12,078 nt of DNA from UHGV virus genome UHGV-0150633; one strand, 5' to 3'. The position numbers were made by a program, and so were the translations under genes. Within the stretch, counting starts at the first letter, position 1, and every line of letters starts with the position of its first letter. Under the pieces are notes generated by a model. That model was not told the DNA's origin. It saw only the letters and a program-made list of their open reading frames with translations, and searched no databases. The DNA comes from a virus. Of the stretch, positions 9,752-10,560 are shown in pieces.

Positions 9752-10560
9752 TGCTCCGCAATGATTTTGATGGTTGTGGCAGTAAACGCCGCACCATTAG
9801 ACTGAATGGTTAACGTGCTGCCATTTGTGGCAAGAAAGCCGTCTTTATCCACGCTGAAGAACGTAGCTAACAGGATGTTGTCGGTTGTTGTCGCCGCATT
9901 ACGACTGCTGACCAGCGTATCAGGAACAGAGCCGGAGAATGTTAGCTGCATTGACCTGTTGGCGGTTCCGCTGGGCCACGTCCCGACGATCGACAGCTTG
10001 AAGAACAAGGTTTTGTTCTCGTTGAACACAACCATCTTGTTGTTAACAGTGTCGAAGAATGGTGCCAACGTGCCGGATGACGGCGTGAGCGTTTTCAGCA
10101 GGCTAACAAGGTTGGTCGGCGCTGTCGGGATTGTTACTGATACGCCAGAGTAAACAACCTCTGACTTTTTGCGAGTAGTGGCATACTCCAGAGCATCAAT
10201 GCGCGCTTCATGGTCTGAAAGCGTGTTTTGAATGGCGACAACTTCATCAGTCAGATAATCAATATCGTTTTCTGCTGTCGTTAATCGCGAATCAAGGCCG
10301 ACTATCGCCGCTTCTGCGTTAGTGATCCTTGTTTCGTGGTCCTGTACCGATGCTTTTCTGGCTGAAATTGAACGCAAAGCAATCCGCAAGTTCATTAACA
10401 GCATTGAACACATCCTGCGTGACAAGCTGTCTCCGTATGACACCGAAGAGATGCTTGAGGCTATGCGTATTTTTCTGGAAGAACAGAGTGGTGAGCAAAA
10501 ATGACAATCACAAAACAACGGGTAGAAGAAATCATATCCCGCATTGAAATGTATGGACAT
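9748..10560 (-). CDS. Tail needle protein (P22 gp26-like with C-terminal knob), apparently 5'-truncated; possible pseudogene
   Basis: The C-terminal ~195 aa show a heptad coiled-coil segment (DHETRITNAEAAIVGLDSRLTTAENDIDYLTDEVVAIQNTLSDHEARIDALE) resembling the P22 gp26 trimeric coiled coil, followed by a beta-rich Ser/Thr-rich knob like Sf6/HK620-type needles. The first ~70 codons of the ORF (10351-10560) give a Cys/Ser-rich peptide unlike a needle N-terminus and are antisense to a better plus-strand coding frame. Homology-supported part is about 9748-10350. Confidence 0.55.
   Translation of the reverse strand: MSIHFNAGYDFFYPLFCDCHFCSPLCSSRKIRIASSISSVSYGDSLSRRMCSMLLMNLRIALRSISARKASVQDHETRITNAEAAIVGLDSRLTTAENDIDYLTDEVVAIQNTLSDHEARIDALEYATTRKKSEVVYSGVSVTIPTAPTNLVSLLKTLTPSSGTLAPFFDTVNNKMVVFNENKTLFFKLSIVGTWPSGTANRSMQLTFSGSVPDTLVSSRNAATTTDNILLATFFSVDKDGFLATNGSTLTIQSNGAAFTATTIKIIAEQ
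10322..10504 (+). CDS. 3' fragment of an early-region gene (hypothetical), 5' end missing
   Basis: Plus-strand frame encodes a charged helical peptide (...AEIERKAIRKFINSIEHILRDKLSPYDTEEMLEAMRIFLEEQSGEQK) whose stop overlaps the ATG of the next gene (ATGA, 10501-10504), a common coupling arrangement in phage operons. It has no ATG or SD at its 5' end and is bounded by an in-frame TAA at 10319-10321. Confidence 0.35.
   Translation: MILVSWSCTDAFLAEIERKAIRKFINSIEHILRDKLSPYDTEEMLEAMRIFLEEQSGEQK

Follow-up and report, generated by a model that had tools for sequence, protein, structure and literature searches.

In the window analysed here (the whole stretch of DNA, 12,078 nucleotides in length), the end of a tail-needle gene on the minus strand and the end of an early-region gene on the plus strand lie head to head. 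The initial annotation held that the two genes meet at roughly 10320-10360, each without its 5' end, and the question that this locus raises is what brought them together. Internal deletion is a well-documented route of prophage decay, with the argW locus as a known example. The analysis described below indicates, with a probability that we put at roughly 0.93, that a cryptic P22/Sf6-like prophage at argW lost about 24-26 kb in one internal deletion, by illegitimate recombination, of which the junction is the scar. The scar is a genuine feature, and one of ordinary prophage decay.

A cryptic P22/Sf6-like prophage between yfdC and dsdC

The window covers the greater part of a cryptic P22/Sf6-like prophage that measures about 13.9 kb from core to core and lies at the E. 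coli argW site, flanked by yfdC and dsdC. In longer contigs, the left part of the element reads yfdC-argW-attL-intS-wzy-tailspike-gp16-gp20-gp7-gp14-needle remnant, and the right part early-gene remnant-108 aa-74 aa-Ea22-171 aa-DUF551-85 aa-torI-attR-dsdC-dsdX-dsdA. The gene calls of the carriers place yfdC/mlaA to the left and dsdC/dsdX/dsdA to the right, and the tRNA-Arg(CCU) gene argW adjoins intS. The features of the window are as follows.

50-1201, plus strand: intS integrase, 99% identical to K-12 IntS
1617-2942, plus strand: Wzy-type O-antigen polymerase moron of low GC content (about 32%), a candidate lysogenic-conversion gene
2999-5038, minus strand: tailspike, 679 aa as called (the 711-aa frame in the open reading frame list is an upstream extension)
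5324-7243, minus strand: gp16-like ejection protein, 639 aa (PF26808)
7243-8625, minus strand: gp20-like ejection protein, 460 aa (PF16928)
8638-9294, minus strand: gp7-like ejection protein, 218 aa (PF25688)
9269-9751, minus strand: gp14-like DUF2824 gene, full length
9748-10346, minus strand: 3' remnant, Sf6-type tail needle gene (codons 84-282 of 282 retained; PF16532)
10346-10347: deletion junction; window 9746-10346 corresponds to 35374-34774, and window 10346-10830 to 8848-8369, of the intact relative L006
10347-10560, minus strand: leader of the chimeric open reading frame, 71 codons, antisense of early genes and without needle homology
10347-10504, plus strand: 3' remnant of an early-left gene, 52 codons and the stop (the intact gene encodes 153 aa, phrog_614)
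10501-10827, plus strand: intact early-left gene, 108 aa (phrog_3126), its start ATGA-coupled to the truncated gene
10805-11029, plus strand: early-left gene, 74 aa (phrog_4132)
11026-11511, plus strand: Ead/Ea22-like early-left gene, 161 aa (PF13935, 114 bits)
11513-12028, plus strand: early-left gene, 171 aa (phrog_9263)

Apart from the two truncated genes, all retained open reading frames are full length. The 16-nt repeat ATGGTGTCCCCTGCAG is found at both ends of the element in two scaffolds that are 100% and 99.99% identical to the window (L007 and L008), and it is the reverse complement of the KplE1 att core CTGCAGGGGACACCAT, likewise of 16 nt (PMC2951348). Both att sites lie just outside the window, with argW and attL about 110 bp to its left. 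The recombination proteins are close to those of K-12, since 381 of the 383 residues of IntS (99%) and 66 of the 66 residues of TorI (100%) are identical. A satellite or PICI was considered and rejected, as replication, primase and capsid-redirection genes are absent.

Beside intS, the stretch from 1201 to 3000 has a GC content of 31-34%, against mostly 40-56% elsewhere in the window. It encodes a 441-aa membrane protein that the annotation of its relatives names an O-antigen polymerase (TIGR04370 scores 33 bits, below its cut-off of 40). This wzy block occupies the place of the gtr or oac conversion genes in K-12 CPS-53 and Sf6-like phages, and it is probably a serotype-converting moron; serotype conversion by Wzy is a plausible reason for the remnant being kept. 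In the adjoining tailspike, the 711-aa frame adds a signal-peptide-like extension of 32 residues at window 5039-5134 (MKRRTLLKSLLGLTSLLPVKFAAS...), which is probably a mere open frame; gene callers and RefSeq start the protein at MSDITPNVV (679 aa).

The two truncated genes abut with one shared base

To locate the junction, window positions 9600-11100 were compared by megablast with 50,697 phage records and 5,426 complete E. coli genomes. On the minus strand, homology to the needle and DUF2824 genes ends at 10344-10346, early-gene homology on the plus strand begins at 10346/10347, and none of these records spans both sides. A three-way alignment of the window with intact copies of the needle and early genes sets the breakpoint between 10346 and 10347, inside the interval given by the initial annotation; base 10346 (A) is common to both parental sequences and constitutes a microhomology of 1 nt. 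In the alignment the parental sequences abut directly, with no IS element or IS end, no target duplication and no foreign filler DNA at 10346/10347. A repeat search of 10100-10600 returned only short chance repeats and no inverted repeats, and Rfam found no RNA families in the window. A promoter and terminator scan of 9700-11100 gave one promoter-like site where 1.6 were expected, with neither strand above shuffled sequence, so a new promoter at the junction is unsupported.

On the minus strand, the open reading frame 9748-10560 is present and encodes 270 aa. The view that needle-like sequence covers its C-terminal part (about 195 aa) was right as to the homology, and the length can now be given as 199 aa (599 bp): residues 72-270 of the chimeric frame correspond to 84-282 in an intact tail needle knob protein of 282 aa. 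BLASTP gives 89% identity to the intact needle over residues 53-270, and the PF16532 knob domain is complete (residues 97-270, profile positions 2-175 of 175, 357 bits in Pfam). What is missing is intact residues 1-83 (MADSNLNEPVITQ...), in whose place stand 71 unrelated codons, starting MSIHFNAGYDFF..., which are antisense to the early region (10347-10560) and devoid of needle homology. This agrees with the proposal that the first 70 or so codons are antisense read-through. Full-length homologs have a different N-terminus, so this leader is not a sequence shared by related needles.

On the plus strand, BLASTP aligns the frame ending at 10504 with an early protein of 153 aa over its C-terminal 53 residues, 50 of which are identical (94%). 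The 60-aa frame is thus the tail of a 153-aa gene and not a complete gene of its own. The intact gene is annotated variously as an hNH endonuclease, as YfdS family or as hypothetical; for the truncated copy, Pfam and NCBIfam returned no family and PHROGs only families of unknown function. The only start-like codon of the frame is GTG 10322, which lies within needle-derived antisense DNA. Of what had been noted about the peptide 10322-10504, the coupling to the next gene stands, the stop overlapping the following ATG as ATGA at 10501-10504; the TAA said to lie directly upstream does not, the nearest in-frame stop being TAA 10256-10258, 64 nt before the GTG. The part of the window to the right of the breakpoint, 10347-12078, is matched by thousands of E. 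coli records.

The interval missing from the element

Intact relatives of the element occupy the same chromosomal site in NZ_CP148334.1 (L006) and NZ_CM196182.1 (L005). Both begin argW-intS-(conversion gene)-tailspike-gp16-gp20-gp7-gp14-needle, continue gp10-gp4-coat-scaffold-portal-terminase-lysis-Q-nin-replication-cro/cI-N-kil-erf-abc and end ...-early gene-...-Ea22-...-torI-attR-dsdC. These and other Sf6/HK620/P22-like argW prophages (the comparison included phages Sf6 and Kapi1) share gene order and sequence with the window on both flanks of the junction and, unlike the window element, hold the interval of about 26 kb. Over intS-wzy-tailspike, L006 and the window are 98.8% identical; at the needle and early genes, identity to the intact relatives is 94-95%. 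The L006 breakpoints fall at 34774 on the needle side and 8848 on the early-gene side, so that 8849-34773, or 25,925 bp, has no counterpart in the window; one IS100 lies inside, and the phage DNA then amounts to roughly 24 kb. The intact relatives are mosaic, 94-99% identical where aligned, and none is the direct ancestor, so the deleted length is an estimate (about 24-26 kb).

The missing interval contains, on the structural side, gp10, gp4, coat, scaffold, portal and terminase and, among other genes, those for lysis, Q/nin, replication, immunity, N, kil, erf and abc, together with most of the early-left operon. Accordingly, the terminase, portal, scaffold, coat, gp4, gp10, lysis, replication and immunity genes of a functional P22-like phage are all absent, and gene lists with Pfam assignments show the carrier contigs to be free of head, lysis, replication and immunity genes from argW to dsdC. 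Two points of the initial annotation are borne out here: the structural genes from gp10 to terminase are gone, and the two truncated genes, which belong to different operons and were said to sit tens of kb apart, are about 26 kb apart in the intact relatives. The head-to-head orientation arises without an inversion because the late and early-left operons already diverge in the intact prophage; an inversion was rejected, the strand arrangement being that of the intact relatives.

A further candidate for the same deletion, NZ_CP075374.1 (H83), seemed to cover window 1-11515 within 13.6 kb; it proved to be a frameshift-rich prophage and not the same deletion. In this locus (L016, 1543707-1565333) torI lies immediately upstream of intS, an attP-type permutation, and is followed by gtrABC, tailspike and late genes, many of them annotated as frameshifted; a tandem copy, an alternative integration or a noisy assembly could account for this.

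A probable single deletion, and what it would leave behind

Taking these data together, the deletion would have occurred by illegitimate recombination virtually without homology (1 nt), joining needle codon 84 to about codon 102 of the early-left gene. It would have removed PL, PR and the late promoter with Q, as well as the repressor, replication, lysis and all head genes. We infer that the element can be neither induced nor replicated and yields no particles, because those promoters and genes are deleted. Both truncated genes would be promoterless debris, presumably silent. By analogy with K-12 KplE1, the surviving att sites, IntS and TorI could still support excision and the surviving Wzy-type O-antigen polymerase could still support serotype conversion.

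The alternative that survives best is decay in several steps, either by at least two successive deletions or by an IS-mediated deletion with later loss of the IS, and we consider it unlikely. An IS100 does lie, in L006, within the interval missing from the window, and a related form of the element has lost further DNA (see below), as continuing or recurring erosion would entail. However, 10346/10347 carries no IS end, target duplication or filler, intermediate forms were not found, and a single deletion is sufficient and more parsimonious. With mosaic relatives and no direct ancestor to compare, one step and several nested steps look alike.

Other remnants of the same family at argW

The K-12 cryptic prophage CPS-53/KplE1 has in this element a new sibling, which arose at the same site and from the same phage family by another deletion. 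The K-12 prophage (argW-intS ... torI-dsdC, 10.2 kb) shares the chromosomal site and the 16-nt att core; like the window element it has neither repressor nor lytic module, and it has a serotype-conversion cassette beside intS and early-left genes of the yfdS/yfdT type beside torI. The cargo and the deletion endpoints differ. K-12 holds gtrABS (yfdGHI), tail-fibre fragments and yfdK-T, whereas the window element holds wzy, tailspike, gp16, gp20, gp7, gp14 and the needle stump, and DNA similarity between the two is confined to intS and the torI end.

A second remnant, in O157:H7 Xuzhou21 (NC_017906.1 3121137-3125285; L018:3435-7583), reads argW-intS-ejection genes-DUF2824-needle knob at the same site as in the window. 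Its needle breakpoint is independent (537 bp of the needle kept, against 599 bp in the window), its coiled-coil variant and junction partner are different and, unlike the window element, it has also lost the tailspike and the conversion genes. RefSeq annotates its knob gene as a pseudogene with a missing N-terminus, and an in-frame stop lies upstream. The needle knob match ends at the same point in every O157:H7 genome sampled, of which one (Xuzhou21) was inspected.

Finally, in two contigs 99.98% identical to the window (L010, from ERR4899572, and L011, from ERR164831, the latter seen in three samples), window 8932 is joined to 11282 with a microhomology of 2 nt (TA). This join removes 8933-11281 (2.35 kb), the 10346/10347 junction included, and fuses the 3' part of gp7 head to head with the 3' part of Ea22; it is absent from the 5,426 complete E. 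coli genomes. The variant shows that erosion of the element continued or recurred.

The needle remnant is best read as debris

The N-terminal end of a tail needle forms the portal-channel plug and the virion-binding domain (PMC3741392). Both are absent from the window copy, which keeps only the distal part of the coiled-coil shaft, from intact residue 84 to about 108 (about 25 residues), ahead of the knob. Nor does the remnant lie downstream of gp10; its upstream neighbours are early-left genes on the opposite strand. The chimeric frame, whether taken as 270 aa or as the 218-aa version that gene callers in other assemblies start at Met53 (window 10404), is therefore best read as a by-product of the join, an accidental open frame and no functional needle, because the plug and the virion-binding domain are missing. 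Exact-product look-ups of the 270-aa and a 221-aa version gave no match; as noted, the gene callers use Met53.

It might be supposed that the remnant is a domesticated module, in which Wzy, tailspike, ejection proteins and the plug-less needle knob are kept intact under selection. Were this so, the module could serve, for example, in O-antigen remodelling and in interference with the entry of related Sf6-like phages, and needle truncation would recur at argW because a free knob is useful. We regard this as very improbable.

Also very improbable is a functional gene fusion, in which the chimeric frame is expressed and selected, for instance to interfere with superinfecting Sf6-like phages in the form of a free, trimeric knob. 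The knob and about 25 coiled-coil residues are indeed intact and in frame with upstream Met codons, and knob homologs with very short N-terminal extensions are known outside P22-like phages (PMC3741392). Shortened knob frames with varied short leaders also occur in many E. coli genomes: the cluster at 90% protein identity to which the 218-aa remnant belongs contains 41 of them, of 162-218 aa, from many assemblies, and at least five distinct short leaders, attached near ...VGLDSRLTTAEND, occur among those inspected (P0001-P0015). However, their similar lengths follow, at least in part, from the way in which a 90%-identity cluster is built. The leader in the window is early-gene antisense sequence, promoter-like sites are no commoner on either strand than in shuffled sequence, the late promoter and Q are deleted, and the O157:H7 copy is an annotated pseudogene behind an in-frame stop. 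One member of the cluster, WP_221929626.1, is labelled Enterococcus faecalis, probably through contamination or mislabelling.

The junction recurs in separate assemblies

Carriers of the junction were found by exact-protein look-ups with the gp16-like protein and the 218-aa (Met53) needle remnant. An identical 60-nt junction is present in contigs of five accessions from ENA and Logan assemblies (L007, L008/L012, L009/L014, L013 and L015), of which SRR14017552 and ERZ28598464 may be one biological sample.

ENA ERZ28598464: 385-kb scaffold (L007), 100% identical to the whole window
ENA ERZ28594328: 52-kb scaffold (L008), 1 SNP in 12,078 bp
Logan SRR14017552: 10.8-kb contig, 0 SNPs relative to the window
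Logan SRR33821866: 33-kb contig (L013), 2 SNPs in 6,879 bp
Logan SRR31227666: 2.4-kb contig, 0 SNPs relative to the window

These carriers make it scarcely conceivable that an assembler joined two halves that are contiguous in no cell: the junction is unspanned in the phage records and complete E. coli genomes, and its exact 24-nt sequence has no match in genome, JGI metagenome and viral contig collections (an uninformative zero, the genome collection having one E. coli genome and the carrier assemblies being in ENA and Logan), but it is exact over 60 nt under five accessions and different pipelines, two of the junction-bearing contigs carry distinguishing SNPs, and the chromosomal flanks are correct, on the attL side in the 385-kb scaffold and on the attR side in the 52-kb scaffold. 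Moreover, the two sides share one base, so that a k-mer graph could join them only through junction-spanning reads, and misassembly is effectively excluded.

The three Logan junction contigs (SRR14017552, SRR33821866 and SRR31227666) all stop at window 10626, 280 nt into the early-left genes, which is consistent with further copies of the ea genes in other prophages of those genomes. Full-length retained open reading frames and 0-2 SNPs between carriers fit a recent deletion in a clonal lineage; the full length of the open reading frames would also be compatible with selection on them.

Significance of the argW remnants

The main value of reading the junction as the scar of one deletion lies in annotation. 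The 270-aa (or 218-aa) frame becomes a truncated needle pseudogene and the 60-aa frame a gene fragment, and the island as a whole becomes a cryptic prophage of the CPS-53 kind, no longer an active phage. The element is also a further well-defined case of prophage decay at the argW hotspot, here through a clean, near-homology-free deletion. Together with K-12, O157:H7 and the further-eroded variant, it represents independent argW deletions of the same phage family. This set of remnants may provide a small natural series from which to read in what sequence prophage modules disappear and which of them are kept, namely att/IntS/TorI and the O-antigen conversion genes.
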